Positions 3,373 to 29,090 of a DNA stretch of 64,000 nucleotides are shown here, in pieces; within the stretch, counting starts at the first letter, position 1, and every line of letters starts with the position of its first letter. Location of the stretch: the NCBI GenBank assembly GCA_964483105.1, contig CAYZZU010000005.1:24475-88474 (forward strand), read 5' to 3'. Both the position numbers and the translations under genes were made by a program. The stretch is from an uncultured Nitrospirota bacterium (lineage in GTDB: Bacteria; CG2-30-53-67). A model generated the notes under the pieces. That model was not told the DNA's origin, made no database searches, and saw nothing but the letters and a program-made list of their open reading frames with translations.

Positions 3373-3420
3373 TGGGATGGTTTTGTGAAAGGCCCGCCGA
3401 TTTTTCCTCTTCAGAAAAAA

Positions 3421-3435
3421 GGCGGACTTTCTGCA
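3421..3435 (+). promoter_or_regulatory. weak sigma54-like -24/-12 element (aGGcgg-N5-cTGCa) upstream of the second OmcS-like gene
   Basis: The GG-N10-GC spacing is conserved about 30 nt upstream of the ATG at 3466. The flanking consensus bases are only partly matched. Confidence 0.25.
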
Positions 3436-3465
3436 AGGCCATCGCACATCGATCGAGGGAAGTTC

Positions 3466-4827: not shown

Positions 4828-4843
4828 CAGAACAGGGGAAACG

Positions 4844-7988: not shown

Positions 7989-7989
7989 A

Positions 7990-8922: not shown

Positions 8923-9902
8923 TGAGTGGTCGAAAGATCTGTCATCGTCTCCTGACCGTTGCTCTGATCGCTTTTCTGAACGGAGTGGCCGTGCGGCCGA
9001 TTCCGGCCGTCACCCAACACGATTTAGCCCATCGGACCGAGAAGTGTTCCGACTGCCATACCATGCATTACAGCCGGGAAGGAGCGGTTCCTTCCAACGC
9101 GGAATTGGGAGGACCCTTCAACCGTCTCCTGATCCGGGCGACCACAAACAAACTTTGCCTTTTCTGTCACGACGGGACCGATGTCCGGGCTCCGGACGTG
9201 TTGGCGCCGGTGACGATGTACAACGGATCCGGTGACGAACATTCCGGGGCGGGTTTCTTCGAATTCAGCGGTGGAACGGCAAGCGGAAAGGGCCATGACC
9301 TCGATGTCGATGCCGCAACGGTCCCTTTCAGCACCCTGACCCATATCAGCCTGACCTGCGCGAGTTGTCATGATCCCCATGGTTCGACGAACTTCCGTAA
9401 CTTGTTGACGGCCCCTGCGGGGGGTGCCGGCACCCCGGTGGTACTGGGCGTGGATGTGTTCACCTCGGTCTCGCCGGCGGATCCTCCCACGGCCGCCGGA
9501 TCGATTGCCGCCTATCGGGCTTCCAACATCGGTTATAAGTCCTCCATGTCCGCCTGGTGTGTCCAGTGCCACGACCAGCCGCATACGGTGAGTATGATCG
9601 ACAAATCGCTCCCCGACTTGACACATTGGGTCAACGGGACAGGTGCCGGTTTCGGGGTTCAGACCGGCGACACGATCGAGGGAGTACCCCGTCTCCGGTT
9701 CAAGAATCCCGCAGCCACCGATTATGTCACGGCCCGTACAGTGGGGCAGGGCAACCAGGGAATCTGTGAAAGCTGCCATTTCGCCCATGGGGGCCCCTAT
9801 CTGAAGGATCTTGTCTGGCCGTACCTGGAAGTCCCGGCGCAGGCCGATACCAATTCCGGATGTTACCAGTGTCATGGAACCATGCCGACGAGTTTTCCCT
9901 GA
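8919..9902 (+). CDS. secreted hexaheme c-type cytochrome, OmcS-like and shorter
   Basis: The ATGA overlaps the upstream stop. There is a signal peptide (RLLTVALIAFLNGVAV). Six CxxCH motifs are present (CSDCHTMHY, CLFCH, CASCHDPHGS, CVQCH, CESCHFAHGG, CYQCH). The first and third motifs resemble the OmcS motifs CEGCHTMHN and CSSCHDPHGK as I recall them. Confidence 0.7.
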   Translation: MMSGRKICHRLLTVALIAFLNGVAVRPIPAVTQHDLAHRTEKCSDCHTMHYSREGAVPSNAELGGPFNRLLIRATTNKLCLFCHDGTDVRAPDVLAPVTMYNGSGDEHSGAGFFEFSGGTASGKGHDLDVDAATVPFSTLTHISLTCASCHDPHGSTNFRNLLTAPAGGAGTPVVLGVDVFTSVSPADPPTAAGSIAAYRASNIGYKSSMSAWCVQCHDQPHTVSMIDKSLPDLTHWVNGTGAGFGVQTGDTIEGVPRLRFKNPAATDYVTARTVGQGNQGICESCHFAHGGPYLKDLVWPYLEVPAQADTNSGCYQCHGTMPTSFP

Positions 9903-9953
9903 GGAATGCGTCCGTGAAGAATGAGAATGTGTTCAGAGGATAGAGAGGTTGGA

Positions 9954-11399
9954 ATGAACAAGCGAATCAACACAGATCCGGCTGCGGGAACGCGCCCGAT
10001 CTCCGAAGGACCGCGGCGACGGATCAGCCTGGGACTCCTGCTCCTCTGTGTCGCGGTACTGTATGGGTCTCCCTGCCGCGCCGTTTCCCGGGAGATCCCG
10101 ATTCATCTCGATCCATTGAAAGGGGCCTTGCGGGACCCGGATCTTCCGCGCGGGGCCTGCAACCAGTGTCACCTCTTCCGATCCGGACGGACGGGTCCAA
10201 GCGCCTCGCTCTGGACCGGGAACGACAACACCCTCTGCTATCAGTGCCATGCGGGGTGGAGCCGAACCGGGATTTACCCGGGGCAGCAGGATTATGAACT
10301 CTCGACGCATCAGCGGGATTCCCGCATGGTCTGGCCGGGTCCCAGGCCGAAGGCCCGTCTGGAACCGGATGCCGCGGGGAAATGCGTCAATTGTCACGAC
10401 CCGCATGGAATCAAGGATCGTTTCGGCCTGATCCCGGCCCTGCTTTTCCGGCGGGACAGCCGTCTCTGCCTGACCTGCCACAACGGCCGTCAGTCCCGGG
10501 TGAATCTCGAGGCTGAATTCAGGAAGCCTTACCGTCATCCGCTGGATCGGTCCGTGGGTCGACACCGGCCCGGGGAGGGGAATCATCCCGGCCGATACGG
10601 CATTTCCAACCGGCACGTCTCCTGTTCGGATTGTCACAACCCGCATACGGTTCGGTCGGACGCGGTTGCTCCGAAGCCCCCGGACGTTTCGAACCGGAAC
10701 CGCTGGGTCAGCGGGGTACGGGTCATCAACCGGGGCGCCGGATCGATCCCCTCTTATATTTACCGCAGTCCGTTGGATCGATCGACCCCGCTCAAGGAGT
10801 ATGAGATCTGCTTCAAGTGTCATTCTTCCTGGACGGTACAGCCTCCCGGACAGACCGATCTGGCCAAGTTTCTGAATCCCAACAACCCTTCCTATCACCC
10901 GGTGGAGTCCCTGGGGAAAGATCTTCAGATCCCGGATATCGCGTTTGTGCGTGGGTGGACGGCGCGCAAGATGACTTACTGCGGGGATTGCCACGGCAGC
11001 GATGACTCGAATATCCGGGGGCCGCACGGTTCACTGTATCCCAATCTGCTTCACGCCCGGTATCCCGCCTCTTCGAATCTTCGTTCCATGGGTCCGGATG
11101 AACTCTGTTTTTCTTGTCATAACTACAAGACCTATTCCGATTCGAACGCGGCCCCGGCGATCCTGGAAGGGAGCCGATGGAATCCTCCGATGGCCGCAAA
11201 TGGGCATGCCTACCACGTGGGTGATCAACGAACCCCCTGTTACGCCTGCCATGATTCGCATGCGTCGACGAGCTTTCCCGCCCTGATCCGAACGGGGCGC
11301 ACCCCGGGGTTGAGGTCTTTTACGCAGAGTCCGGGTGGAGGAAGCTGCACGGCAACCTGTCATCCCTCCCGATCTTATCGCGTCAATTATTCGAGATAG
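9954..11399 (+). CDS. secreted decaheme c-type cytochrome (9 CxxCH plus a C-terminal CTATCH, i.e. CX3CH)
   Basis: CNQCH, CYQCH, CVNCH, CLTCH, CSDCH, CFKCH, CGDCH, CFSCH and CYACH are followed by the atypical CTATCH. The N-terminus has a long n-region and a hydrophobic core (ISLGLLLLCVAVLYGSPCRA). The start could be 9921 (track) or 9954 (MNKRIN). Confidence 0.75.
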   Translation: MNKRINTDPAAGTRPISEGPRRRISLGLLLLCVAVLYGSPCRAVSREIPIHLDPLKGALRDPDLPRGACNQCHLFRSGRTGPSASLWTGNDNTLCYQCHAGWSRTGIYPGQQDYELSTHQRDSRMVWPGPRPKARLEPDAAGKCVNCHDPHGIKDRFGLIPALLFRRDSRLCLTCHNGRQSRVNLEAEFRKPYRHPLDRSVGRHRPGEGNHPGRYGISNRHVSCSDCHNPHTVRSDAVAPKPPDVSNRNRWVSGVRVINRGAGSIPSYIYRSPLDRSTPLKEYEICFKCHSSWTVQPPGQTDLAKFLNPNNPSYHPVESLGKDLQIPDIAFVRGWTARKMTYCGDCHGSDDSNIRGPHGSLYPNLLHARYPASSNLRSMGPDELCFSCHNYKTYSDSNAAPAILEGSRWNPPMAANGHAYHVGDQRTPCYACHDSHASTSFPALIRTGRTPGLRSFTQSPGGGSCTATCHPSRSYRVNYSR

Positions 11400-11411
11400 G
11401 AAAAGGAGGTT

Positions 11412-13076
11412 ATGGCGATCGGACGATGCAGTGAAGTACGGAGAAGAACCGGGGTTTTGTTGGTGGGAGTCATCATGTTGGGAGGAATCGCGTTATGGGG
11501 GATGCCCGCCCGGTCGGATGCGGTGCCCCTGACACGCGGGTCCTTTTTTCTGAACGATCACTTAACGGATTCGGCTTCCTCCCGGAACGATTTTGTTTCA
11601 GCGGGGTTGAATCTGAACCTGGAGGATCATCTGTTTGTCAAGAACCGCATGGGGCTCAGTCTGTATCTTCCGTGGACCCAACAGAGCCGGAGTGGATCCG
11701 GGCAGGGGCAGGAAACCAATCGTTCCTTTGCGCCGCGGGGTCTGATGAACCTGAGTGGCAAGGATTACACCCTGAATGTGACGCACGGGATTGTCCGGAA
11801 TTTTGATCCCCTGACCGGGGAACGGTCCAGCCGCGACACGGATATCGGGCTGAACATGACGCCGGATAAGATGCTGCCGCTGCAGTTGAACTATACGGAG
11901 AACAAATCATTGGTTTCCAGCATCGTTACCAAAAACAAGAACTGGTCTGCCGGCAGCGACGCGGATCTGGGCTCGATTCATCTGAGCGGAGGATATCTGC
12001 GGCAGGAAAACAGCTCCAGTCAGCAGGGAGGGCTTTCCGAAAACCGGAGTGGATTCGGGGAAGCCGCGGCGACCTGGAATCTATGGCGTGAGACCTTTCT
12101 CCATGCCTCCTATGATTTCTCAGACAGCCGCGGCAGCGCGAAACTGAGTCATACCGCAAACAAGGCCCGGACCCTTTCCTTCCTGATCAACAGCGTCCCC
12201 TACGACTGGCTGAACCTGTCGGGGAGTTATGTCGGGGATTTCAGTGACGGGACCACGTCCTCCGGGGGACGGAGATCCGGCTTTTCTCAGGATGAAACGA
12301 CGGCGGACCTCACGGTACAGATCACCCCGGCCGAATGGTGCAGCCTGAGCGCGCACCAGGGAAGGACCCGGAACGAACAGAACGGTGAGCTCAGAATCTC
12401 GAAGTTAACGGCTCTTTCCATCAGCGCTTCCGGAGAAATTATGGAAAACATCGATGGTGTTTTCAACCTCTCCCGCTCCATCAACGATGATTCCGAACAG
12501 GGAAGGAGTGTCAGCACCTCCGCGTTCATTACCGGGAATATGATTCTCAACCCCGAAATCACCCTGCGCATCAACAGCGGATTGACGAAGAACGAGATTC
12601 CAAGGGAAAGCGGAGTGCCTACAGCAGGTCCTGGAAACTATGCGACCAGCACGCACGTGGATCTCTGGTCTTCTCCGACAGAGAAGACCACCCTGTCGGT
12701 CAATTATACGGCGAGCGCCACCCGGGATCATCCCTTTTTTTTCGGACGGGACGACCAGAGTATCGGGGGGACGCTGAGTCTGCTCGCCAAGAAAAATGTG
12801 ATTTACAACCTTTCTGTTTTTCGACATTTCCCTTCCGGGGGGGAGGCAAGTTCCTCGTACAACGGCTCTTTGTCCTACCGATTTTACAAGGGGTCCCACA
12901 TGACTCTGAGTTATGAAGAGAGCGTCAGCCCGGGGAATCGCAACGGATCCGTGAGCGGAAATTTCGTGATTGTATTGCCGAAGCAGACGAGCCTGTTAAT
13001 CAATTACAATCTTGCGGGTTTGTCTACAGAGGAGAAGACAACCTCCCTGGGGGTTCAATTCTCAAAACCATTTTAA
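11412..13076 (+). CDS. putative outer-membrane beta-barrel protein; candidate porin partner of the upstream decaheme (MtrB/MtoB/PioB-like arrangement)
   Basis: An AGGAGG ribosome-binding site is present, with a signal peptide (LLVGVIMLGGIALWGMPARSDA). The 554-aa sequence is rich in S/T/N/G/Y with alternating hydrophobic and polar residues, and the C-terminus ends ...LGVQFSKPF (terminal aromatic, as is usual for an outer-membrane protein). It lies immediately after the decaheme gene. No homology search was possible. Confidence 0.45.
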   Translation: MAIGRCSEVRRRTGVLLVGVIMLGGIALWGMPARSDAVPLTRGSFFLNDHLTDSASSRNDFVSAGLNLNLEDHLFVKNRMGLSLYLPWTQQSRSGSGQGQETNRSFAPRGLMNLSGKDYTLNVTHGIVRNFDPLTGERSSRDTDIGLNMTPDKMLPLQLNYTENKSLVSSIVTKNKNWSAGSDADLGSIHLSGGYLRQENSSSQQGGLSENRSGFGEAAATWNLWRETFLHASYDFSDSRGSAKLSHTANKARTLSFLINSVPYDWLNLSGSYVGDFSDGTTSSGGRRSGFSQDETTADLTVQITPAEWCSLSAHQGRTRNEQNGELRISKLTALSISASGEIMENIDGVFNLSRSINDDSEQGRSVSTSAFITGNMILNPEITLRINSGLTKNEIPRESGVPTAGPGNYATSTHVDLWSSPTEKTTLSVNYTASATRDHPFFFGRDDQSIGGTLSLLAKKNVIYNLSVFRHFPSGGEASSSYNGSLSYRFYKGSHMTLSYEESVSPGNRNGSVSGNFVIVLPKQTSLLINYNLAGLSTEEKTTSLGVQFSKPF

Positions 13077-13088
13077 GAGGAACACGGT

Positions 13089-13706
13089 ATGAAACGAAGA
13101 TGCGGTTTTTGCAGAACCGGATTCACACTTTCCATTCTTCTGGCGTTCCAGTTGGTTACGGCCGGATGTGGGGGAGTGTCCATCCGGAAATATATTCACC
13201 CGGACGCCGACATGTCCTTTTACAAGAAGGTGGGCGTGATCCCCTTTCGCAACCTTTCTTCCGACCGGTTGGCCGGAACCAAACTGACGGAAACCTTTGT
13301 GACCGAATTGATGATTCCGAACCGGTTTGAAGTAGCTCCGCCGGGGGAATTCCGGCATATCGTCCAGAAGGTGAGTCTGGCCGTGGGCCCGATTTCCGAG
13401 GTGGAGTTTGTGCCCGCGCAGTTGAAGAAGATCGCGAAGGAGTCCGGGGTCCAGGGAATCTTCATGGGGACCGTTCAGGAATATGAAATGACCCGGATCG
13501 GACAGGCGCAGTATCCCGTGATTTCGTTGAATGTCCGGTTCGTGGACGCCGAGACCGGGACCGTGGTCTGGCAGGAGAGTTATTTCGAGCGGGGTGGTCC
13601 GAAGCTGCCGGTCCTCGCCATCGGAGAGATCATGACGCTGGGTGAATTAAGTCAAAGAACCTGCAGACATGTGATGCGGGATTTCTATCACAGCAAACTC
13701 TTTTAG
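13089..13706 (+). CDS. lipoprotein, CsgG-like or TolB N-terminal domain-like (paralog 1)
   Basis: The lipobox is LVTAGC, with an AAGAGGA ribosome-binding site. The motifs KVGVIPFRNLSSDR ... VISLNVRFVDAETGTVVWQES are reminiscent of CsgG family lipoproteins (KIFVSVYNIQD ... VNLRVVNVSTGEIL). This is recalled from memory, so the family assignment is tentative. Confidence 0.4.
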   Translation: MKRRCGFCRTGFTLSILLAFQLVTAGCGGVSIRKYIHPDADMSFYKKVGVIPFRNLSSDRLAGTKLTETFVTELMIPNRFEVAPPGEFRHIVQKVSLAVGPISEVEFVPAQLKKIAKESGVQGIFMGTVQEYEMTRIGQAQYPVISLNVRFVDAETGTVVWQESYFERGGPKLPVLAIGEIMTLGELSQRTCRHVMRDFYHSKLF

Positions 13707-13760
13707 ACTCAACCGTCGGATTGGAGAGGCCGGGAGGATTGCCGGCCGGAAAGGAGTCCT

Positions 13761-14408
13761 ATGAACCGGATCATTTCAGCCGGGGACCGAGTGAAAACGT
13801 TTACGGTCCTCTTCCTGACCCTCGTCTCAATTGGAGGATGGATCGGTTGCCATGCCGTTGTGCCATCCGGCATGACGCCGCAATCCCGATGGAAGGTGGC
13901 GATTCTGCCATTTGAAAACCTCAGCAACGAAGAAGGCGCCGGCCGGATTGCCGGAAACATATTCCTGGTCAAGGCGCTGAACTCCGGGGTGTTTGATATC
14001 GCGGATCCGGGGGCCGTGGACGAGGAATTAGGCGCGGAACGTGTTCGTCTAACGGCCCATATCCCTCTTGAGACCCTTCGGAAAATAGGGAAGCGGCTGC
14101 AGGTTCATTATATCCTGATGGGGAGCGTCCTGGAAGATGAGATGCAGATATTAAGCGGTGTGGGCGGTGGCGGCCAGGTTCCTTCGGTTGCTTTGACAAC
14201 CCGGATGATCGACGTCCGGACCGGGCGTGTGGTCTGGGCGGACGCGCAGTCCAAGCGGGGCACGGATTATGAAAAAATCTTCGGATTCGGAAGAATTTAT
14301 TCGACGAGCCGGCTCATGGAGATTGTGACGGAAAAGATGGTCTCCTCTTTAACGCGCTCCCTCGCGAAACAGGGGCTCGAACCTGGAGATGGAAAGGCGG
14401 GAAAATGA
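13761..14408 (+). CDS. lipoprotein, CsgG-like or TolB N-terminal domain-like (paralog 2)
   Basis: The lipobox is WIGC, with an AAGGAG ribosome-binding site. The motifs KVAILPFENLSNEEGAG ... VALTTRMIDVRTGRVVWADAQSKRG show the same architecture as the upstream paralog. Confidence 0.4.
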   Translation: MNRIISAGDRVKTFTVLFLTLVSIGGWIGCHAVVPSGMTPQSRWKVAILPFENLSNEEGAGRIAGNIFLVKALNSGVFDIADPGAVDEELGAERVRLTAHIPLETLRKIGKRLQVHYILMGSVLEDEMQILSGVGGGGQVPSVALTTRMIDVRTGRVVWADAQSKRGTDYEKIFGFGRIYSTSRLMEIVTEKMVSSLTRSLAKQGLEPGDGKAGK

Positions 14409-14974
14409 AAGGTATGTGGATTGTCCTGGTGAGTTTTCTTATGCTCCTGAGCGCCGGGACCTCCGGCGTCTGCGCGGTTTCGGCCCGCTTCGTAGGTGTT
14501 CGAAAATGCCGCATCTGCCACTTGAAGGAATACAAAAGTTGGGCGGAGACTCCGATGTCCAGGGCCTTCGACCTGCTGAAACCCGGTGTCGACAGCGCGG
14601 CCAAGGTGGCCGTGGGCCTGAGGGGGGAAAAGGATTACACGGAGGATCCCGCCTGTCTGAGGTGTCATGTCACCGGAGGGCGGACCGATCTGCCCGGGGT
14701 ACAGTGCGAGGCCTGCCACGGACCCGGTTCCGGCTATATCAAGGTCATGATCATGAACCGGCATTACCTTCGAAAAGAACTCTCCGAAAAGGGACTTCGG
14801 GATGCCGGAAAGCCGGACTGTGTCCGGTGTCATAATTCGAAGAGTCCATTTTACAAGGGATTCAATTATGAACAGTACGCCCGACGGGAACTCCACTTCC
14901 AGGTGTTCTCCGTACCGGGGGTCCACAAAAAGTTCCCCTTGAAATTTCAACATACGTCATCAGGTAAGGAGTAA
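14405..14974 (+). CDS. small periplasmic tetraheme c-type cytochrome
   Basis: The ATGA overlaps the upstream stop. There is a signal peptide (MWIVLVSFLMLLSAGTSGVCA) and four CxxCH motifs (CRICH, CLRCH, CEACH, CVRCH) in 189 aa. Confidence 0.75.
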   Translation: MKGMWIVLVSFLMLLSAGTSGVCAVSARFVGVRKCRICHLKEYKSWAETPMSRAFDLLKPGVDSAAKVAVGLRGEKDYTEDPACLRCHVTGGRTDLPGVQCEACHGPGSGYIKVMIMNRHYLRKELSEKGLRDAGKPDCVRCHNSKSPFYKGFNYEQYARRELHFQVFSVPGVHKKFPLKFQHTSSGKE

Positions 14975-14978
14975 TTCC

Positions 14979-17900
14979 ATGCGCATGAACCGTTTCTGTC
15001 GGGTTGTTCTCCCGCTTCTTTGTCTCAGCATCCTCGGCGCCGGGGTTGTGATCGCCTTTTCCCCGACAAGTTCTGAAGCGAGGGTCAAGGCCTGTTACGA
15101 CTGTCACCAGGATGCCCGAAAGGCCTTTCGAAAGAAAACGGTTCATGACCCGGTAGCGAAAAAAAATTGCGAGGCCTGCCACTCGCGGCACGGGTTTACG
15201 AATAAACTGATCCTGAAGAAAACCGGTCCGGATCTCTGCTTTGATTGCCACCGGGATGCGAAAAAGAACTTCAGCCGGGGGAGTGTCCATGCCCCGATCG
15301 ACGAGGGGAAATGCACGGCCTGTCACGATCCGCACGCCTCCGACGGCAAGTCCCTCCTGAAGGCGAAAAAAACGGAAACGCTATGCCTCTCCTGCCATAC
15401 CGGCCTTGCCCGGGAGAAGAAAAAAGAGGTGCTGCATCAGCCCTTCGCGGAAGGAAACTGCCTGGCCTGCCACGATCCTCACAACGCGGAAGGCAAAGCT
15501 CTGCTCCTCAAGAAGGGGAACCTCCTCTGCGTGAAATGCCATCCGGGCCGTCAAATCGCCGCGTCATCCTCCCATCGTTCAATTGATTCGAAGACAAGCT
15601 GTCTTTCCTGCCATCGTCCCCATGCCTCGGACGCGAAGCATCTGCTGGACTCCAGCCTGCATCTCCCCTTCGCGGAGGGCAAATGCGACTCATGCCATAC
15701 CGAAGCCGCGCCCGGCAAAGAGGCGGCACTGAAAAAACCGGTGCGGGAACTCTGCGTGCAATGTCACGCGGAGGTGTCCCGACAAACCGAGAGGGGCCAT
15801 GTCCATCCCCCGGCCGGAGAGGGGAATTGCACTCTTTGTCATGATCCCCATCAGAGTCCGAATCGTCCCCTGCTCAAGTCCCCGCAAAAGGCCCTTTGCC
15901 TCACCTGTCACTCCGACCAGGCGGGACGGTTCAAACAGCCGACACTGCATCCCCCCTTCGCGTCGGGTAAATGTTCCTCCTGTCATGAACCGCATGGATC
16001 GGAGAATGCTCGCTTGCTTCGGTCCGGTCTGAAGCCGCTCTGCCTTTCGTGTCACAAGGCGTTGGCGGAACGTCTCCGGAAGTCCGGGTCGGTCCACCCG
16101 GCTCTCCGGAACAAGAATTGCCTGGGATGCCATACGGCTCACAGTTCCGATGAGCCGGGGCTTCTTCGGCAGGATCAGTCATCGCTGTGCCTGACCTGTC
16201 ATCAGGATTTTCAGAAGGCGTTGAATGTTTCCCATCCGCATCGGCCGATCGTGAAGGGGAAATGCTCCTCCTGCCATGCTCCGCACGCCTCGGATCAAAA
16301 AAATCTTCTGAAAAAGGAAGGGGTCTGCTTTACCTGTCATCAAGATCTTGGAAAACCCGGGAAGGGAATGCGATTGCATGCCCCCTTTGCTTCGGAGAAA
16401 TGCGGTGTCTGTCATAACGCGCACGGCAGTGAGAAGAAAAACTTTCTGATTCTGCCCGAAAAGGAGCTCTGCGCGCAGTGCCACTCCATCGAAAAGATCC
16501 TTTCCCGTAAATCCGTACATACCCCTGTGGCGGACGGAAACTGCTCGGGCTGTCACGATCCCCACTTTGCTTCCAACAGGAACCTGCTGCGCAAAACCGG
16601 TTTCAAACTCTGTTTCAGTTGTCATGACGGTACGTCGTTTAAATACGGGATCGTTCATAAACCGGTCCATGAAGGCCGTTGTGATCTTTGCCATTCGGCG
16701 CATGGTTCGGATGTGGCGGGGGATCTGTCCCAGCCCGAGGGGAAGCTCTGCAGGACCTGTCACTCCTTTGATGAGAAGGCGTTCCCCAGCGTGATGCTGT
16801 CCGACGCACACCGTGGAAAGAAATGTTCCATCTGCCACGATCCGCATTCCTCAGCGGGAGATCCCAACCTGATCCGGAAACAGAAGAATCCCCATTTTGA
16901 CCAGTGTAATTTCTGTCATGATGACTCCGCTCCGGAGGGAAGTTTCCGGCTTCTACCCAAAAAACAGAGCGATTATTTTTCTTCTCTGCGGGACACCTCC
17001 GGGAACGGGAAGGGGGATTTCGAGGGGAAGGTCGTGCACGAACCGGTGCGCAGGGGGGAATGTGTGCTTTGTCATGCGTCACACGCCACGAACGTGAAGG
17101 ATGATCTTCTGAACCGGACCGTTCCGGATCTCTGTTTTACGTGCCATACGAAGACCAAGACGGAGCTGAAGCGGAAATTCACGCATACCCCGTTCCGTTC
17201 CGGAGAATGCCGGACGTGCCATAACGCGCATACCTCGTCCGCGCCCGGGCTGTTGCGGAAACAGACGGTGAAACTCTGTTTTTCCTGTCATGAAGACCTG
17301 AAGGTGAAACTCGCCTCCGAGAAGGTGCATCAACCGGTGAAAGAAGGGAAATGTCTGGCGTGTCACGACGCGCACGCCACGGGAAACAGCGCGCTGCTGA
17401 AGAAGAAGGCAAGACGCATCTGCCTTGAGTGCCATGACACCGGGAAAACAGGTTTTGTCAAGGCCCACTTCCGGCACAGGGATATGGCCGGCACCGATTG
17501 TCTCAGTTGTCATGACGCCCACTCCGTTCCCAAGAGCAGCCGGAAGTTGCTGAAACCGCATGCTCATCCTCCTTACGAGGCCGGAATGTGTGACGCCTGC
17601 CACACCACGAACGACGCACTGACGGTAACCGACACTTCGGAAAATCTCTGTTTCGGATGCCACGAGGACGACCCGGGTGAGTTTCATCAGTCGGATAAGC
17701 ATCATGCCTTGAAGATCAGGCGGAAATGCCTCAACTGTCACTCTCCACACCTGGGGTATACGGAGCAGAACCTGCGTAATCCGATCCCGGCCCTCTGCTT
17801 TTCCTGTCATGGTTCCGGGATCATGGGGAAAAAGCATAAGCATCCGCCCGCCACAGTAACCTGTCTGCTCTGTCACAGACCCCATTCGACGAAGGATGAT

Positions 17901-18128
17901 TTTCTCCTGCAGGACAGGATCATCCCCGTTTGTGAGACCTGCCACGACGTCGCGGGAAAACATACGCATCCGATCGGAGGGGATTACAAGGACCCGACCA
18001 ATGGACGAATGCTGACCTGTGCCAGTTGCCATAATCCACACTCCTCGGAGTTTGAAAAATTGACACGAGGCGAACGGAGCCGGGGACTTTGTATACGGTG
18101 CCATAAACCCGGAGAGCATGAGTTGTGA
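14979..18128 (+). CDS. giant multiheme c-type cytochrome with 41 CxxCH motifs in 1049 aa
   Basis: A TAAGGAG ribosome-binding site is present, with a signal peptide (RVVLPLLCLSILGAGVVIAF). I counted 41 CxxCH motifs in the translation. They are arranged as tandem modules of about 50 aa, each alternating LC[LF]xCH with ...G.C..CHDPH.S, i.e. roughly one heme per 25 residues. Confidence 0.85.
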   Translation: MRMNRFCRVVLPLLCLSILGAGVVIAFSPTSSEARVKACYDCHQDARKAFRKKTVHDPVAKKNCEACHSRHGFTNKLILKKTGPDLCFDCHRDAKKNFSRGSVHAPIDEGKCTACHDPHASDGKSLLKAKKTETLCLSCHTGLAREKKKEVLHQPFAEGNCLACHDPHNAEGKALLLKKGNLLCVKCHPGRQIAASSSHRSIDSKTSCLSCHRPHASDAKHLLDSSLHLPFAEGKCDSCHTEAAPGKEAALKKPVRELCVQCHAEVSRQTERGHVHPPAGEGNCTLCHDPHQSPNRPLLKSPQKALCLTCHSDQAGRFKQPTLHPPFASGKCSSCHEPHGSENARLLRSGLKPLCLSCHKALAERLRKSGSVHPALRNKNCLGCHTAHSSDEPGLLRQDQSSLCLTCHQDFQKALNVSHPHRPIVKGKCSSCHAPHASDQKNLLKKEGVCFTCHQDLGKPGKGMRLHAPFASEKCGVCHNAHGSEKKNFLILPEKELCAQCHSIEKILSRKSVHTPVADGNCSGCHDPHFASNRNLLRKTGFKLCFSCHDGTSFKYGIVHKPVHEGRCDLCHSAHGSDVAGDLSQPEGKLCRTCHSFDEKAFPSVMLSDAHRGKKCSICHDPHSSAGDPNLIRKQKNPHFDQCNFCHDDSAPEGSFRLLPKKQSDYFSSLRDTSGNGKGDFEGKVVHEPVRRGECVLCHASHATNVKDDLLNRTVPDLCFTCHTKTKTELKRKFTHTPFRSGECRTCHNAHTSSAPGLLRKQTVKLCFSCHEDLKVKLASEKVHQPVKEGKCLACHDAHATGNSALLKKKARRICLECHDTGKTGFVKAHFRHRDMAGTDCLSCHDAHSVPKSSRKLLKPHAHPPYEAGMCDACHTTNDALTVTDTSENLCFGCHEDDPGEFHQSDKHHALKIRRKCLNCHSPHLGYTEQNLRNPIPALCFSCHGSGIMGKKHKHPPATVTCLLCHRPHSTKDDFLLQDRIIPVCETCHDVAGKHTHPIGGDYKDPTNGRMLTCASCHNPHSSEFEKLTRGERSRGLCIRCHKPGEHEL

Positions 18129-18338
18129 GGATTCAGCATAGGGGGCGATGTGGGGGTGGAGAAAAAGGGGAGTCTAAAGCCACCGGATTTTGATCCGATG
18201 TTCCACCCGTTTCAACTCTGAGCCGCCTGCCATGAGCTCGGCCTGAAACCTCATGGCTGTCGCTGCGGCACAGGCATCCGCAAAAGAGAACGGATATTGC
18301 GCCTGGATTCCGGCGGCATCCATCCCGTCCGAATTCGA

Positions 18339-19205
18339 TTAGTCATCATCCAGGCTGTGACACTCCAGACACCCCTTGTTGCTCCTGTTGTTTTCCCAGC
18401 GCATGCTGTTCTGAAAACGGCTGGCATGAGCGTAGTGGCAGGAGAGACAAAACACCCGGGCCCGATAGGTGTCACTCGGATTTCCATCAGGATATTCGAC
18501 CTGGATCAGGCCGGAACCTCTCCGGGACCACCCCTCAAAGTCCGCGTGACGCGCCCCGTAGAGAGGGATTCCGGTGGGATGGCGGACCCACTCTCCGCTT
18601 TCCCTCGTGTTGGTCTCTCCATGGAAATACTCATGACAGGCGCTGCAGAATTCATCCATCCCGGAAATATAGAGATTGTTCCGGTAGTTTGGATCTCCCA
18701 CCGCCCGGACCAGCGTGCTCTTTCCTTGAATTGTTGTCCTCAGGTTTCGGTAATTCCCGTTGTCGTGGGGGTCATGGCAGCTCAAACAGCCGAAATTTTT
18801 CAGGGGGGCTGTTCCACCCGGAGGCATCGATCCGAGAACCGCGTCCGGATGGAGTATGTTGTGTCCCACACCGTCCGAAAAGAGAGTTTCGGTAAAAGAT
18901 CCCGCGGCCAGGGGAGTTGTTCCATTCAGTTCATAGGGAGGATTCAGGTTTGATCGGTCCCTGTCCGCGTCATGGCAGGTGAGACAGACCTGATCCTTGG
19001 AGAGTTCGCTTGTGACAGCGGAGGCATTCGGACGATCTTCTCCTCCCGGCAGCAATTTGTGGCACGCCGCGCAGGGAATCCCCTCATGCATCCCCCAGGC
19101 ATTGCAGACAGGAAGCAACAACAGGACAATCCAGAACAAAATCGGCGGAAAATGCAGGGAATATTTTGTTGAGCGCCTCATGACCCCTCCTTTGCCATGG
19201 CCCAC
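18339..19205 (-). CDS. secreted hexaheme c-type cytochrome, OmcS-like
   Basis: There is a signal peptide (ILFWIVLLLLPVCNAWG). Six CxxCH motifs are present (CAACH, CLTCH, CLSCHDPHDNG, CSACHEYFHG, CLSCHYAHASRF, CLECH). The CxxCHxxFHG motif is shared with the plus-strand paralogs (CSVCHGDFHGG). Confidence 0.7.
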   Translation of the reverse strand: MGHGKGGVMRRSTKYSLHFPPILFWIVLLLLPVCNAWGMHEGIPCAACHKLLPGGEDRPNASAVTSELSKDQVCLTCHDADRDRSNLNPPYELNGTTPLAAGSFTETLFSDGVGHNILHPDAVLGSMPPGGTAPLKNFGCLSCHDPHDNGNYRNLRTTIQGKSTLVRAVGDPNYRNNLYISGMDEFCSACHEYFHGETNTRESGEWVRHPTGIPLYGARHADFEGWSRRGSGLIQVEYPDGNPSDTYRARVFCLSCHYAHASRFQNSMRWENNRSNKGCLECHSLDDD

Positions 19206-19600: not shown

Positions 19601-20188
19601 TTAAGGCAAATGATACGAATCGTCCATGCCCTGCGCCAGGTCCGGAGGTTCGTTCGTGTTGTTGATCGAGAGATGCCCCTGTCCGGCGGTAAAGTGTGCC
19701 AGGACGGCCTCTTTCAGGATGTGTGATCCGAACGGCTTTCTGAAGAAACGGATCACATCGAGCTTTTCGGCTTCGTGTTCCAGTTCGGGATTATTGGACG
19801 CTGTGATCATGATTGTCGGGGGCATGCTTCTTCTTTTTTTTAATAAGGACAGGAGATCCAGGCCGGTCATGCCGGGAAGGCTATAATCGAGAATCATCAG
19901 ATGAAATTGGATCTTTTCAATAAAACGTATTGCTTCTTCGGCATTTTCCACACATACCGTGGAGCAGTCTATATCTGTCAGGTTCTTGGCGATGGACCAG
20001 CAAAGGAGGCGTTCATCCTCAACAATGAGGACCTTTTTCCTACGATGATCGAAGGCATCGGTAGGAAAGCTATCGACAGTTTGGAAAAAATTCGGCCCTA
20101 ATCCAAGATTCATCAGATCAATCCTGCGTTCGTTTTCTATTCCTGTGAGGATTAGAAAGCAAGATAGGTGCCAAAAGAGAAGGTCCAT
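19601..20188 (-). CDS. single-domain response regulator (CheY-like receiver)
   Basis: The receiver signature is KKVLIVEDERLLCWSIAKNL...MILDYSLPGMTGLDLLSLLKKR, and there is no output domain. The true start is probably an internal Met (for example at 20113). Confidence 0.65.
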   Translation of the reverse strand: MDLLFWHLSCFLILTGIENERRIDLMNLGLGPNFFQTVDSFPTDAFDHRRKKVLIVEDERLLCWSIAKNLTDIDCSTVCVENAEEAIRFIEKIQFHLMILDYSLPGMTGLDLLSLLKKRRSMPPTIMITASNNPELEHEAEKLDVIRFFRKPFGSHILKEAVLAHFTAGQGHLSINNTNEPPDLAQGMDDSYHLP

Positions 20189-20546: not shown

Positions 20547-23500
20547 ATGAGACCCTTCGGAACACCAAGATCTTTCCGGATCAAAAGAGTTCTCTTCATT
20601 CTGTTTCTGGGGGGAATCTTCGCGGCGCTCCTTTTCTTCTCTCTCTCTTTCTTCCTGAAGAGCCCTGCATTTGTTCATTTGCTCCAGGAGATCCTCTCTT
20701 CCCGACTGGAAAAGAAGATCGAGATCGGATCGATCAGCTTTCCAGGAGACTCCTCAGTGGTCATCCGGGATCTTAAGGTGCGCGACCCCGAAAACGGGCG
20801 TTTCAGTCTGGACATAGCCGGGGTCCGTCTTGTTATCAATTTCCAGGGGATTCTTCACAGGAGAATTGATCGCCTCGACATCCGTTCCCCCAGGATTTTT
20901 CTGCGTCCGTTATGGGGCGGGGGGAGAGGTGGGGCGAAGGTCATGGTTTCTCCGCCGCCCTTTCTGGTGGAATCGATCCGGGTGGAGGGGGGCCACGCCA
21001 TTCTGGATTTGAAGGAGACGACGGTTCAGATGGATTTCCGTATGGGGTCGACTCTTGCGCAAAAGGGCGGCAGATGGAGTGGGAAAATCAATGGGGACCT
21101 GCGCGAAATCCACGCGGGCACACGCAAAGAGCGTTCCGCCGGTGCTTTCCCGGCGGATGGATCGATCGCCGGTTCCGTGGGGGTGACGGGGACCTTCCAA
21201 CGACCTTTCTCGAAAGATCCGGCTTATTTCCTCGAAATCCATGGCGATTCGCTCTCTCTTTTGAATCTGAACCGTTATCTCCTCACTCCCTTGGGGATTC
21301 AATCCCGGGGGATTTCCTGCCGGGGAGAGGCACAAGGGTCACTCCGAATTGAGGGCATAGGACGGAAGAACCTGCGATGGGAGGCCCTGTTTTCCTTCAC
21401 CGACCTGGCATTCCGTTACAAAGGGGTCAACCGGGATCTGCCGAGACAGACGGTCGAAGTCTCTTCCAACGGTTTCTGGGATCGGAGCCGGGACCGCCTG
21501 GATCTGGCTTCACTGAAGGCTGCTTTACCGGGACTGGGTGTTTGGACTCTGAGGGGGGTTGTGCGGAGGATCTCATCGGGAAATCCCGATTTGGGTCTCC
21601 ATCTGACGGGTGAAAAGATCTCCCTTCAAGGGATGAAAAATCTTTTCCCCTCTGTGACGGGATGGACAATCACCGGGAACGGAACCGCGGATTTTGACAT
21701 TACGGGGGATCCTGTCTCACCGATCCTCCGGGGAAGACTGGCATTTCATGGAGACCGCATCCGGTCGGAAGGCCTGTCGATATCCGACTGCGGACTCAGC
21801 CTTCTGGCGCGCTATCGGGAGGGACGGATATCCGTTCATCAGGTTGTGGCGGAAGCCGCGTCGGCCATAGTCCCGGACAGAGAGGGGAAGCGGGTCTGCA
21901 GCGTCCGAAATATCAAGCTTCGGGTTCCGAATCTTACGATTCGTGGAAGAAGAATCCGGGCGGGACGCGTCCTTTTTACGGCGAATCGGATGGCACTCTC
22001 CGGCCCGGGGAAGGATGGTGCCGCCCAGGAGGAAATCCTGCTCACGGGGGACCTGTCAAGTGACCTGGAGAAAGAAGAGGGGAGGATCACCGGAATTTTT
22101 CGTACCCGGACGATCCGCGGGATTTCCTTTGACACCTCTTTGAATTTCAGAAAACCGGTCCTTGTGAGGGGGAGATTTCAGGATCCGGACTTCGACCTCG
22201 ATCCATTATGGAACTTCCTGCGCCGTTTTGTACCTGCGGTTCAAGGGTACACCGTCCGGGGGAAGGGAAGTGTAACCGTTCTTTTCCAATCCACTTTCAC
22301 GGATGGTCTCCCAATCGATTTTCATGGCAGGACCGACCTGAAGATCACGGACGGCGCCTTTTCCTCTTTCGATGCCACACAGGCGGGGGAAGGGATCGCC
22401 CTGGCCCTGTCGGGAGAGTTCGGATACAAGCGACCGGAAAAGGTCATGAATTTCTCGGTTCAGACCCGGGCTTCCGGTTTTGAGCTGCTCCTGGGCCCCT
22501 TTTACGGTGACTTCAAGAAACGGGAAATGGGTCTCTCGGTTGCGGGGGCGTACCGCGAAAAAAAGGATCTCCTCGAGATCACAAAGGGGAATTTCCACAT
22601 CCGGAAGATGGGCGCCCTTCTTTTTGACGGGCGGATCTCCCACATCACGAAGGATCCGAGGTTCCACGCCGAAATCACTCTCCGGGAGCTTGAGAACCGG
22701 CGTGCCTTTGATTTCTTTATCCGGGAGACTTTCCAGGAGAGCTTCCCGGTTCTCTCACGATTGGAACTGGACGGCCGTTCGTCGTTTTCACTTCTTCTTC
22801 AGGGCGGGCGGGAAAAGATCGAGGTAACCGGAACGGTCCAAATGGAAGATCTGGCCGTTCGGGACCCGAAGTCGGGTCTGGACCTTACCGGAGCCCGGCT
22901 CTTCCTGCCGGTTGATCTGTCCTATCCGAAGGCTTTCCAAAGGAAGCCGGTCAGACAGTACGGTGTCTTTTCGATCCGAAGGCTCAACTGGCGGACTTTA
23001 ACGTTTGAGAAGGTGAGACTTTTTCCCGTGATCCGGGAAAACTCCCTCCTGTTCCGGGAGGGGATTACCCTTCCGCTTTTCGGAGGAAAGGTCGTCTTAG
23101 GGGATCTCTCCTACAGGAATCTTCTGAGCCCGGATCGAACACTGAGATTCACCCTGACCGCGTCGGGTATGGATTTGTCCGCAGCCGGTGGGTTCCTGGG
23201 GATGCCATACCTGACCGGCTCCCTGTCCGCGCGAATTCCGCGTGCCGAATGGAAGGGGAAGAGCCTTATGACTGACGGTGAAGTCAACCTGAAACTCTTT
23301 GGCGGGGAAATGAAGATCCGGAAAATTTCCGCGCACGATCTCTTCACTCCGGTGGCTTCCCTTCAATCCACCATTGAGTGCAGGGAGATCGACCTGGGCA
23401 GACTGACCGGGATCTTTGAGTTTGGGCGGATTTCCGGCATTCTGGAAGGAGAAATCAACGACCTGGTTATCAGTAACGGCCAGCCTCAGTCCTTCACCGC

Positions 23501-23858
23501 CCGGATCGAGACGGTCAGGAGAAAAGGGGTGCCGCAACGGATCAGCGTGGAGGCGCTGGAAAAGATTTCAGTCCTGGGATCCGGTTCTTCGGGGGGAATC
23601 CTGACGAGAGGGATTTATCGGTTCTTCAAGGAATACCGGTATCAGAAAATGGGGTTTTCCGGCCGGCTCCGGAACGATCATTTCCTTTTGAAAGGAGTTG
23701 AACGGGAAGGCCGTAAGGGGTATCTTGTGAAGGGAGGTTTGTTGCCGCCGAGGGCCAACGTGATCAGTTACACCCAGGATATTTCTTTCCGGGAGATGGT
23801 GAAACGTCTCGAACGGATTCGAACCATCGACTCCGGAAACGGCCCGACGGTTCGATGA
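20547..23858 (+). CDS. AsmA-family large envelope protein (YdbH/TamB-like), N-terminally membrane anchored
   Basis: The 1103-aa protein has a single N-terminal TM helix (VLFILFLGGIFAALLFFSLSFFL) followed by a long periplasmic region rich in predicted beta structure. The next gene encodes a YnbE/YdbL-like protein, matching the E. coli ydbH-ynbE-ydbL synteny. Confidence 0.45.
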   Translation: MRPFGTPRSFRIKRVLFILFLGGIFAALLFFSLSFFLKSPAFVHLLQEILSSRLEKKIEIGSISFPGDSSVVIRDLKVRDPENGRFSLDIAGVRLVINFQGILHRRIDRLDIRSPRIFLRPLWGGGRGGAKVMVSPPPFLVESIRVEGGHAILDLKETTVQMDFRMGSTLAQKGGRWSGKINGDLREIHAGTRKERSAGAFPADGSIAGSVGVTGTFQRPFSKDPAYFLEIHGDSLSLLNLNRYLLTPLGIQSRGISCRGEAQGSLRIEGIGRKNLRWEALFSFTDLAFRYKGVNRDLPRQTVEVSSNGFWDRSRDRLDLASLKAALPGLGVWTLRGVVRRISSGNPDLGLHLTGEKISLQGMKNLFPSVTGWTITGNGTADFDITGDPVSPILRGRLAFHGDRIRSEGLSISDCGLSLLARYREGRISVHQVVAEAASAIVPDREGKRVCSVRNIKLRVPNLTIRGRRIRAGRVLFTANRMALSGPGKDGAAQEEILLTGDLSSDLEKEEGRITGIFRTRTIRGISFDTSLNFRKPVLVRGRFQDPDFDLDPLWNFLRRFVPAVQGYTVRGKGSVTVLFQSTFTDGLPIDFHGRTDLKITDGAFSSFDATQAGEGIALALSGEFGYKRPEKVMNFSVQTRASGFELLLGPFYGDFKKREMGLSVAGAYREKKDLLEITKGNFHIRKMGALLFDGRISHITKDPRFHAEITLRELENRRAFDFFIRETFQESFPVLSRLELDGRSSFSLLLQGGREKIEVTGTVQMEDLAVRDPKSGLDLTGARLFLPVDLSYPKAFQRKPVRQYGVFSIRRLNWRTLTFEKVRLFPVIRENSLLFREGITLPLFGGKVVLGDLSYRNLLSPDRTLRFTLTASGMDLSAAGGFLGMPYLTGSLSARIPRAEWKGKSLMTDGEVNLKLFGGEMKIRKISAHDLFTPVASLQSTIECREIDLGRLTGIFEFGRISGILEGEINDLVISNGQPQSFTARIETVRRKGVPQRISVEALEKISVLGSGSSGGILTRGIYRFFKEYRYQKMGFSGRLRNDHFLLKGVEREGRKGYLVKGGLLPPRANVISYTQDISFREMVKRLERIRTIDSGNGPTVR

Positions 23859-23952
23859 TCGTGACCCAGCGGATTTCTTGATGTTGGGTCCGGAACGTGA
23901 TAGGCCTGAAGTCGTGGAAATGACCGGAGAATCCATGAGGGAGGAAGAAACC

Positions 23953-24561
23953 ATGAAGAACAGAGGAATGCGTTTCGCGGTGGTTCCTTCGCTGCTTGCC
24001 GCGGCGGTTGTGATGTCCTGCGTGACCATCAATATCTATTTCCCGGCAGCCGCCGTGGAAAAGGCGGCCGATCGGATTGTGGAGGAGACCTGGGGAGAGA
24101 AGACCCCTCCCCCCGAAAAGAAAAAGATTCAAAAGGAGGGTTTCCTCGCTCCCCGTCGATGGTTCCCGTTCCTCCGGGTCGGGGTTGCCGCTGCCTGGGC
24201 GCAGGATGCGGATATCAACGTGAGCACGCCGGGGATTCGGGCATTGAAGGAGTCGATCCGGAAACGGGCCGGGGCGCTCAAACCGTATCTGGATCGAGGA
24301 AACGTGGGGATTACCCGTGATGGCCTGCTTGTGATGCGTTCGCCGCGGGGGATCGGTCTCCGGGAAAAGGCCACCCTGGCCCGCCTGATCAAGGCGGAGA
24401 ACAGCGACAGAATGCGTCTCTACAGGGAGATCGCCAGGGCGAACAATTTCAGCGACGATCGGGTTCCCGATATCCAGAAGATCTTTTCCGGGAGTTGGAT
24501 CCGTCAGGCCAGGAAGGGATGGTGGGTACAGGAGGGGGACGGGAAATGGCATGCAAAGTGA
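23953..24561 (+). CDS. YnbE-like lipoprotein segment fused to (or read through into) a DUF1318/YdbL-like periplasmic domain
   Basis: A GGGAGGAAG ribosome-binding site is present. The signal and lipobox (AAAVVMSC) is followed by TINIYFPAAAVEKAADRIVEE (compare YnbE ITINMNVKIEHE). The C-terminal half (LDRGNVGITRDGLLVMR...AENSDRMRLYREIARANN...WVQEGDGKWHAK) resembles YdbL as recalled from memory. Confidence 0.4.
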   Translation: MKNRGMRFAVVPSLLAAAVVMSCVTINIYFPAAAVEKAADRIVEETWGEKTPPPEKKKIQKEGFLAPRRWFPFLRVGVAAAWAQDADINVSTPGIRALKESIRKRAGALKPYLDRGNVGITRDGLLVMRSPRGIGLREKATLARLIKAENSDRMRLYREIARANNFSDDRVPDIQKIFSGSWIRQARKGWWVQEGDGKWHAK

Positions 24562-29080: not shown

Positions 29081-29090
29081 ACAATCCTCA

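Follow-up and report, generated by a model that had tools for sequence, protein, structure and literature searches.

We analyzed a 64,000-nucleotide stretch of contig CAYZZU010000005.1 from an uncultured Nitrospirota bacterium (hereafter, the window), in which an earlier note, made from the sequence alone, had singled out a gene for a giant multiheme c-type cytochrome. This gene (14979-18128, plus strand) is an intact open reading frame (ORF) encoding 1049 amino acids (aa). It carries a good Shine-Dalgarno sequence, AAGGAG, 8 nt before its ATG, and the stop codon of an upstream tetraheme cytochrome gene lies 4 nt ahead of its start. We counted exactly 41 CxxCH motifs in the protein, or one heme per 25.6 residues, in agreement with the 41 motifs and roughly one heme per 25 residues given in the earlier note, and we found no CxxxCH or CxxxxCH variants in it. 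This number is far beyond chance expectation: 2000 shuffles of the protein contained a mean of 0.60 and a maximum of 5 CxxCH motifs. The 1049 residues include 84 Cys, 93 His, and 8 Met, and the mature protein would weigh ~112 kDa as an apoprotein and ~137 kDa with its hemes. A Sec signal peptide is predicted at residues ~1-34 (14979-15080, plus strand; the boundary is approximate), and the AlphaFold2 (AF2) model of the protein has a hydrophobic N-terminal helix at residues 3-26. The first CxxCH follows no more than 5 residues past the predicted signal peptide, AxA-type sites directly precede the first CxxCH in homologs, and there is no lipobox at the N terminus of the window protein.

The body of the protein is a repeat of a two-heme unit. 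The Pfam model Paired_CXXCH_1 (PF09699) matched 20 stretches with a total of 666 bits against a cutoff of 20.6, and TIGR01905 matched 20 stretches with 653 bits, so that membership in the doubled-CXXCH domain family lies above the curated cutoff. BLOSUM autocorrelation of the protein peaked at 48 aa, which supplies the repeat period that the earlier note had proposed to determine. Two motif types, A ("LCxxCH") and B ("GxCxxCH(D/x)PHxS"), follow one another in the pattern ABABABABAABAB..., and the regular alternation described earlier is therefore real, though broken in a few places. Three additional B-like hemes that lack the "PH" (numbers 9, 26, and 34, counted in the window protein) interrupt it, as does a 52-residue gap, from residue 643 to residue 695, at which the family of homologous proteins has one more heme.

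That family was recovered in a homolog search over 5.8 billion proteins. It comprises ~80 clusters of proteins of 1030-1100 aa that share 32-38% identity with the window protein at 96-100% query coverage and that come, where their sources are named, from Zixibacteria, GN15, the FCB group, Latescibacterota, Krumholzibacteria, and Gemmatimonadaceae. Exactly 42 CxxCH motifs were present in 78 of the 83 matches longer than 1000 aa, a constancy that is striking for a modular repeat protein at ~35% identity. A second size class, of 646-693 aa, had exactly 26 hemes in 26 of 30 proteins, and a third class of homologs had 38 hemes. The window protein is homologous to the long class along its full length, and all 41 of its CxxCH motifs fall in columns that are invariant across 77 sequences; with 41 motifs instead of 42, it is best placed, from this alignment, as a derived sub-clade of the 42-heme family. 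Because a test of best matches between 23-aa single-heme segments was uninformative for positional orthology (12% fell at the same position, the heme motif dominating the segments), the case for colinearity rests on the full-length alignments and on conserved irregular spacings. In a single-protein scan of GTDB reference genomes, the closest relative was no more than 36% identical, so that GTDB holds, judged by this gene, no near representative of the host.

We also ran an exhaustive HMMER scan of 1.84 billion cluster representatives, in which 708 proteins passed the threshold of E<=1e-30. Among the 150 best matches, 133 proteins were new; most of these had 10-35 hemes, with a peak at 16 (25 proteins). 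Three predicted proteins of the same paired repeat, P0250 (3592 aa), P0308 (3274 aa), and P0357 (2281 aa), contain 131, 129, and 82 CxxCH motifs. A count of 41 hemes is thus large but not extreme for the paired-CXXCH type, and it is the constancy of the count and of the genomic context that stands out.

The position of the missing heme can be read directly from the alignment. Family site 27, "LCxxCHD", reads DYFSSLRD in the window protein (residues 665-672, nt 16971-16994), where both cysteines and the histidine are replaced in frame (C to F, C to L, and H to R). A nearly invariant His, in the column of window residue 637, is also absent; the window protein has a His two residues further on. 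The same site is lost in a colinear 1051-aa ortholog that we found on a Logan contig (L014) with the same gene order. This ortholog is 64% identical to the window protein, keeps all 41 motifs, reads "AYFASLTG" at site 27, and has no His in place of the missing one. The heme-free linker around the site is 66% conserved between the two proteins, on par with the remainder of their length, and shows a low predicted local distance difference test score (pLDDT) in the AF2 model. Given that the loss is common to both proteins and that the linker is as conserved as everything else, the loss of heme 27 is old and tolerated. A second difference specific to this clade lies between hemes 21 and 22, where almost all 42-heme family members have an insert of ~20 residues (heme spacing 43) and the window protein has none (spacing 23; residues 522-545, nt ~16542-16613).

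A protein this repetitive, one heme short of nearly all of its long relatives and lacking the insert between hemes 21 and 22, might owe its form to an assembler that had expanded or collapsed the array, or to a pseudogene in which the lost heme is a symptom of decay. The earlier note had raised the worry of repeat-driven assembly error, and we consider this explanation effectively refuted. Tandem Repeats Finder detected no tandem DNA repeat over 14900-18200, and the longest direct-repeat families in the gene span at most 50 nt, with copies that are 60-83% identical; the repeats are old and diverged in DNA, and therefore offer no substrate for assembly collapse or expansion. Four contigs encode the identical protein, and in the two that we compared in nucleotides, from the Joint Genome Institute (JGI) samples 3300023503 (162 kb) and 3300009408 (231 kb), the gene showed 0 mismatches in 3150 nt. 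In addition, 331 of the 672 residues that the L014 ortholog shares with the window protein are specified by different codons, and such codon divergence with kept motifs is the signature of long purifying selection. Decay also sits poorly with the good ribosome-binding site and a linker conserved like the remainder of the protein. An interrupted reading frame, one of the two findings that the earlier note had named as fatal to its proposal, was not seen; the frame runs through without a break here and is identical in the two other assemblies.

The numbers 26 and 42 acquire meaning from a second arrangement of the same sequence. In loci assigned to Desulfocapsa (L004), "Deltaproteobacteria" (L006), and Desulfuromonadales (L013), a gene for a 26-heme protein is followed, with a 4-nt overlap, by a gene for a 16-heme protein, and the sum of this split form, 26 + 16 = 42 hemes, equals the total of the fused family. 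Using proteins from Desulfuromonadales and Thermodesulfobacteria metagenome-assembled genomes in place of the Geobacter protein GSU2495, we found that stand-alone 26-heme proteins align best to window residues ~18-652, with 33-37% identity and E values down to 1e-133; the N-terminal part of the window protein is in this sense a homolog of the GSU2495 type. The L013 16-heme protein aligns end to end with window residues 681-1043 at 35% identity, and a repeat-driven match of the same protein to residues 22-411 scores marginally higher. The 26-heme proteins stop a few residues beyond heme 26 ("...H.PF..G.C..CHQGGAP"), and the 16-heme proteins have a signal peptide of their own, of the signal peptidase I type, followed immediately by a first CxxCH that corresponds to heme 27 of the fused form.

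We divide the window protein into three parts: an N-terminal 26-heme module (residues ~35-647, hemes 1-26; 15081-16919, plus strand) that is colinear with the stand-alone GSU2495-type proteins; a heme-free linker (residues ~648-686; 16920-17036, plus strand) that holds the degenerate heme-27 site; and a C-terminal 15-heme module (residues 687-1049; 17037-18125, plus strand) that is colinear with the stand-alone 16-heme proteins except that their first heme has no counterpart. By this comparison, the heme lost in the window clade is exactly the junction heme at the boundary between the 26- and 16-heme proteins. There is no separate 16-heme gene next to the window's 26-heme part, which is instead fused in frame to its 15 hemes. 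We are highly confident that the window gene is the single-polypeptide form of the 26-heme plus 16-heme pair of Desulfobacterota.

The split pair has been described from genomes. Skennerton et al. reported in 2017 a 26-heme cytochrome adjoining a 16-heme cytochrome unrelated to HmcA, in an operon that also holds a six-bladed beta-propeller and a peptidyl-prolyl isomerase (PPIase), in SEEP-SRB1, Desulfuromonadales, Ca. Desulfofervidus, Thermodesulfobacteria, Anaeromyxobacter, and Desulfurivibrio (PMC5539420). They recognised no porin in the operon and gave its function as unknown; they noted that it was not expressed during metal respiration in four cultured species, and from this non-induction they argued for a role in electron uptake during direct interspecies electron transfer (PMC5539420). 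The Geobacter 26-heme member is GSU2495 (= Gbem_1124), of ~70 kDa. Murali et al. later proposed, in 2023, a putative "OetABI" conduit in which a porin is combined with one cytochrome in the periplasm and another, a lipoprotein, outside the cell, citing the Skennerton cluster; the conduit was first seen in G. sulfurreducens under an omcB-mutant condition (PMC10553843). OmcS-like, OmcX-like, and 6-heme "Apc2a" genes are often part of the Oet cassette, and the bacteria concerned have conserved c554-type cytochromes (PMC10553843). The main text and supplements of that paper do not state heme numbers for OetA and OetB (PMC10553843). In our reading, the GSU2495-type pair very probably represents the Oet cytochromes. 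A 2013 paper on Zixibacteria by Castelle mentions only an MtrAB-like cluster, and for the NHL/cytochrome clusters of D. ferrophilus we found no heme counts and no clear link to this system. In the limited literature that we searched, no paper paired a 42-heme term with "multiheme", and the fused family appears, within those bounds, to be undescribed. What is new here is the fused variant that lacks the junction heme; the 26 + 16 system itself is known bioinformatically and is functionally uncharacterised.

To which class of cytochromes does the repeat belong? Each unit is a paired-CXXCH module of the kind that characterizes the MtrA/DmsE/NrfB lineage. The NCBIfam model for DmsE-family decahemes (TIGR03508) scored 449 bits against a cutoff of 192.2, although as seven partial stretches of the 258-position model and not as the single full-length match with 10 hemes expected of a true decaheme; the window protein has 41 hemes in 1049 aa. 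Among PDB sequences, the only good match was chain A of 6R2Q (333 aa; E 7e-16), which we identify as MtrA from Edwards 2020 (PMC7198977) and from the title of the PDB entry, "Structure of the Mtr complex"; the match to an S-layer undecaheme was weak. A phmmer alignment placed MtrA residues 167-318, its C-terminal half, against window residues 875-1019. The AF2 model, with a pLDDT of 82.9, predicts an MtrA-like three-dimensional fold. The family has 35 invariant and 5 nearly invariant non-motif His residues among 77 members, or about one distal ligand per heme, and this pattern, together with the few Met residues, fits a chain of electron-transfer hemes that are all bis-His ligated, as in MtrA (PMC7198977).

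The earlier note had instead likened the protein to c7-type polymer wires such as the GSU1996-type dodecahemes. The two are alike in heme density, at about one per 25 residues, and in the notion of a linear chain of hemes assembled from modules, and there are weak, overlapping Pfam Cytochrome_C7 matches (136 bits). Kinship with c7 polymers does not hold, and we rejected that identity: the repeat unit has two hemes and not three, no tandem triheme c7 domains are present, and searches of the PDB gave no sequence or fold match to c7-polymer structures. The domains of c7 polymers carry a His-Met heme, whereas the conserved axial ligands of the 41-heme family are all His.

The gene is the last of a series, from 7023 to 18128, that is tightly packed with gaps of -4 to 54 nt, and its upstream neighbors are those that the earlier note had reported, namely a tetraheme cytochrome, lipoproteins, and a beta-barrel. 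The tetraheme protein (14405-14974, plus strand; 189 aa with a signal peptide) is similar to cytochrome c554 (Pfam Cytochrome_C554, 1e-15; PDB 1BVB, E 2e-14); its gene overlaps the preceding one by 4 nt and occupies the same position in L014. Before it lie genes for a PelC/CsgG/LpoB-like lipoprotein (13761-14408, plus strand; 215 aa; lipobox ...WIGC; Pfam CsgG 2e-5, LpoB 6e-4) with homologs in L003, L004, L006, L011, L012, and L013, and for an LpoB/PelC-like lipoprotein (13089-13706, plus strand; 205 aa; lipobox ...VTAGC) whose Pfam LpoB match of 1.9e-4 is just under the cutoff. The 205-aa lipoprotein has a 39% identical homolog in the Zixibacteria locus L003, and it shares a (V/I)x(V/I)(I/L)PF.NLS motif with lipoproteins of L013. 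Every locus of the system encodes two or three lipoproteins with a (V/I)A(V/I)LPF.NLS motif that are weakly PelC/CsgG/LpoB-like; in L013 their genes lie at 5671-6246, 6258-7769, and 7766-8377.

Upstream of the lipoprotein genes is a gene for a 554-aa protein ending in ...FSKPF (11412-13076, plus strand), which AF2 folds into an all-beta meander and which we predict to be an outer-membrane beta-barrel of ~28 strands. It has no Pfam or NCBIfam match, including to MtrB_PioB. The pLDDT of its model is 72 for the whole chain and exceeds 80 over most of residues 150-520, and Foldseek matched it to TonB-dependent transporters, LptD, and MtrB. Of the matches listed, MtrB (6R2Q_B) had the highest query TM-score (0.50, at 9% identity), and TonB-dependent transporters had better E values; the protein fits TonB-dependent transporters and LptD no less well than MtrB. 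Barrel-sized proteins without a Pfam match occupy the same position in L011, L012, and L014. Because an outer-membrane protein and lipoproteins are predicted here, the host would be diderm.

The rest of the cytochrome island, which contains 78 CxxCH and one CxxxxCH in ~19 kb, encodes further multiheme cytochromes and propellers. A multiheme cytochrome with 9 CxxCH and 1 CxxxxCH (9921-11399, plus strand; 492 aa as the longest ORF, 481 aa as called by JGI) is preceded by an OmcS-like hexaheme (8919-9902, plus strand; 327 aa; PDB 6EF8, OmcS, E 6.5e-10) with a 41% identical homolog in L003. A second OmcS-like hexaheme (18339-19205, minus strand; 288 aa; PDB 6EF8, E 2.5e-5, and Pfam) is convergent with the 41-heme gene and is found at the same position in L014 and L001; both are significantly similar to OmcS, the Geobacter nanowire subunit. 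Two adjacent genes for NHL-type six-bladed propellers (7023-7988, 321 aa, and ~7990-8922, 310 aa; plus strand) are supported by JGI calls on L001 and L002 with NHL/DUF5128/SGL matches, by Pfam/NCBIfam, by tblastn from the L013 NHL genes, and by a check of the translations. A PD40/Tricorn-like propeller (4655-7042, plus strand; true start probably past 4827; Pfam PD40, 7e-23) has a counterpart at the same position in L014, and an NHL/SGL six-bladed propeller of 330 aa (Pfam SGL, DUF5128, NHL) is encoded at 688-1680 on the plus strand. Two paralogous hexahemes (1946-3313, 455 aa, and 3385-4827, 480 aa; plus strand) are homologous to L013_349 and L013_336, which have 5-6 hemes, and the 455-aa protein had no PDB sequence match at E<=0.1. 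Both paralogs have ~76-80 residues per heme and end in ...KSF, and longer ORFs on the opposite strand mask them. Promoter and terminator scans yielded no more sites than in shuffles.

A set consisting of the big cytochrome, a ~550-aa protein without a Pfam match, one LpoB-like and one other small lipoprotein, 6-heme cytochromes, and NHL proteins recurs in L003 (a Zixibacteria chromosome), L011 (Latescibacterota, with the order of the window), L012 (a 1.46-Mb contig), and L014. In L012 a CcmF-type cytochrome c maturation gene (21123-23174) directly follows the 42-heme cluster, which suggests a dedicated capacity for heme attachment there.

This set resembles the published split operon in having NHL six-bladed propellers (in the window at 688-1680, 7023-7988, and 7990-8922, by NHL/DUF5128/SGL matches), 5-6-heme and OmcS-like cytochromes, PelC/LpoB-like lipoproteins, and a large barrel candidate. 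Locus L013 has counterparts of the NHL proteins and of the 5-6-heme cytochromes as well as three PelC/LpoB-like proteins that carry a (V/I)A(V/I)LPF motif, and it also encodes a 697-aa protein ending in ...NLTF. It differs in its barrel candidate, which has no detectable sequence similarity to that of the window, and in its PPIase: this enzyme is counted as "core" in the split operon, yet the L013 PPIase (Rotamase_2) had no tblastn match in the 64-kb window at E<1e-3, and none was seen in L011, L012, or L014. The hosts differ as well: the LepA encoded in the window is 77-85% identical only to proteins of metagenome-assembled genomes with conflicting labels ("Deltaproteobacteria bacterium", "Nitrospirae bacterium CG_4_9_14_3_um_filter_53_35", or "bacterium") and ~70% identical to all others, and by this protein the host belongs neither to Desulfobacterota nor to the FCB group.

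The differences from the Mtr systems (6R2Q; PMC7198977) are larger. MtrA has 10 hemes against the 41 counted here, in a protein about four times longer; PelC-like lipoproteins and NHL propellers, both encoded in the window, are not part of Mtr systems; and the window operon has neither an MtrC/OmcA-type decaheme nor a barrel that matches the MtrB_PioB model of Pfam. A parallel in concept is PCC3 of iron-oxidising Gallionellaceae, a bioinformatically defined porin-cytochrome complex whose periplasmic cytochrome of 21-27 hemes is predicted to be linear and of sufficient length to span the periplasm and is encoded with a porin and an extracellular multiheme cytochrome (PMC5566968; PMC10734462). 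Compared by its published description only, PCC3 is set apart by a conserved inner-membrane protein, by the lack of reported PelC-like lipoproteins, and by heme numbers that vary (21, 24, 27) where the fused family is nearly fixed at 42.

One way to read a many-heme protein of this kind is as a soluble periplasmic reservoir, or capacitor, of ~41 electrons, whose location beside the barrel gene would reflect a shared regulon and no physical complex. The 41-heme protein carries a Sec signal but nothing that would anchor it in a membrane, the many-heme cytochromes of PCC3 have been suggested to store charge, and Skennerton et al. predicted that the 26- and 16-heme proteins are periplasmic and attached to neither membrane (PMC5539420). 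However, storage alone does not account for a heme count that stays close to invariant, at 42, from phylum to phylum, or for the retention of 26 + 16; it leaves unexplained why the cytochrome gene is strictly linked to those of a large barrel and of PelC-like lipoproteins in every locus that we examined; and the MtrA-type fold belongs to a barrel-inserted wire. We therefore regard a reservoir as quite improbable.

The reading that we favor, with moderate confidence in it as a whole, is that the window encodes a porin-cytochrome conduit with a long MtrA-like heme wire running through the periplasm and the outer membrane; that the wire works across the whole envelope is, as a mechanism, an even call. 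In the Mtr structure, ten hemes span 80 A, the membrane is ~40 A thick, MtrB has 26 strands, and MtrA has its N terminus in the periplasm and its C terminus outward (PMC7198977). Scaling from this geometry at 8.9 A per heme interval gives lengths, if extended, of ~222 A for 26 hemes, 124-133 A for 15-16, and ~356-364 A for 41-42. From these comparisons we infer where the protein lies, how it is oriented, how long it is, what it touches, and which way electrons could pass. The exported protein would take the shape of a thin, insulated rod of hemes that, if extended, measures ~36 nm. Because window residues 875-1019 are most like the C-terminal half of MtrA, the C-terminal 15-heme module would be the part sheathed by the adjacent ~28-strand barrel, with its last hemes facing outward, and the two PelC-like lipoproteins would possibly dock this module as a ring or collar. 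PelC forms a lipoprotein ring beneath the PelB outer-membrane barrel, and by analogy the PelC likeness hints, weakly, at an unrecognised collar at the periplasmic mouth of the window barrel. The N-terminal 26-heme module (~22 nm) would bridge the periplasm in the direction of the inner membrane, and there the inner end of the rod could exchange electrons with the co-transcribed c554-like tetraheme or with other carriers. The outer end would connect to the OmcS-like hexaheme and other multihemes of the operon at the cell surface, with the NHL/PD40 propellers as accessory proteins. Without heme 27, electrons could pass between the two modules only if hemes 26 and 28 are in direct contact, or if the rod is bent or its modules are docked. 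The proposal of the earlier note, a long linear chain able to span the periplasm, is supported in part: the modular architecture is borne out, and the scaled length would suffice if the rod is extended.

Several observations weigh against this wire. The loss of heme 27 would break a strictly linear chain, and the rod may, judging from the model, be bent or folded back; a folded-back rod would explain how heme 27 could be lost. The AF2 model of the 41-heme protein has a predicted TM-score (pTM) of 0.57, with its lowest confidence at residues 600-680 and at the C terminus, and the barrel model is built on six sequences. In sequence, the barrel resembles neither MtrB/PioB nor the split operon's own barrel candidate, the match of the 215-aa lipoprotein to PelC in the PDB (9H80_C) is weak (E 3.8e-4 over 151 residues), and we identified no inner-membrane quinol oxidoreductase in the operon. 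In addition, at least 11 of 26 stand-alone 26-heme proteins are lipoproteins by their lipobox, compared with 8 of 76 fused forms. A lipobox is also typical of multiheme cytochromes at the cell surface, MtrC and OmcB among them. Murali et al. draw one Oet cytochrome, a lipoprotein, as extracellular (PMC10553843), and given this drawing and the lipoboxes of the split form, part of the rod might lie outside the cell.

Taken further, these last points lead to a different placement of the same protein, in which it is threaded outward and the 26-heme module juts ~20 nm outside the cell, as the equivalent of an extracellular "OetB", leaving only the 15/16-heme module in the barrel and periplasm. Such a tethered nanowire stub could contact minerals, partner cells, or OmcS-like filaments, and the operon is indeed rich in OmcS-like cytochromes, which are presumably extracellular. 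However, MtrA points its C terminus outward and its N terminus into the periplasm (PMC7198977), and the most MtrA-like stretch of the window protein is C-terminal, so that colinearity puts the N-terminally fused 26-heme module on the periplasmic side. MtrA is trapped in the pore of MtrB, which tapers to ~15 A on the outside (PMC7198977), and this argues against passage of a folded rod; the lipobox is missing from the window protein and from most fused forms; and the assignment of OetA and OetB to the 16- and 26-heme proteins is a presumption. On balance, we consider an external 26-heme module unlikely.

For the trans-envelope wire, the fixed heme number then becomes a matter of length. The periplasm is typically ~20-25 nm wide. 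Given that 26 hemes (~22 nm) match this width and that the total is fixed at 42, the near-invariant count suggests a length selected to fit envelope dimensions. A stronger form of this idea, which we advance tentatively and with low confidence, is that 42 hemes are a molecular ruler, a wire of one or two pieces that reaches exactly from the inner membrane through the outer membrane, held in a novel porin-cytochrome machine with a collar of PelC-like lipoproteins around its barrel. If this were true, the system would be the first conduit to cross the envelope without relying on carriers that diffuse in the periplasm, and the window clade would be a natural "cut wire", in which the modules dock side by side or electrons tunnel over the space of about one heme.

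How electrons cross the ~20-25 nm of the periplasm is an open question in extracellular electron transfer, and the Shewanella and Geobacter models depend on small cytochromes that diffuse. With a near-invariant 42 hemes over at least four phyla, and 26 + 16 when split, the family described here is a strong candidate for a cable that is hard-wired across the envelope and calibrated in length. The tractable Geobacter has the split form (GSU2495 and its partner), the natural fused and split variants allow fusions and junction-heme knock-outs to be designed directly, and the conserved barrel and pair of PelC-like lipoproteins are a complex to purify. A cluster that has been discussed mainly for the sulfate-reducing partners of anaerobic methanotrophic archaea (ANME) now extends to Zixibacteria, Latescibacterota, Krumholzibacteria, Gemmatimonadaceae, and an uncultivated lineage, and this host range bears on how electroactivity is read from sediment and subsurface metagenomes.

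The cytochrome island is flanked by two possible regulators. The C terminus of a sigma-54-type activator (AAA lid and Fis-type helix-turn-helix) is encoded at 5-436 on the plus strand, and a stand-alone response-regulator receiver, whose position is conserved in L014, at 19601-20188 on the minus strand. Also beside the island are genes for a 1103-aa protein with a weak N-terminal DUF748 match (20547-23858, plus strand) and a DUF1318 protein (23878-24561, plus strand), a pair that we take to resemble the AsmA-like ydbH-ynbE-ydbL operon of E. coli for outer-membrane lipid homeostasis. Further downstream, at 26001-30000, the AT skew swings from -0.18 to +0.26 between adjacent 2-kb bins. In this region Na+/H+ exchanger and TrkA genes lie on the minus strand and a trigger factor/ClpP/ClpX block begins, and the swing probably reflects the change of coding strand.

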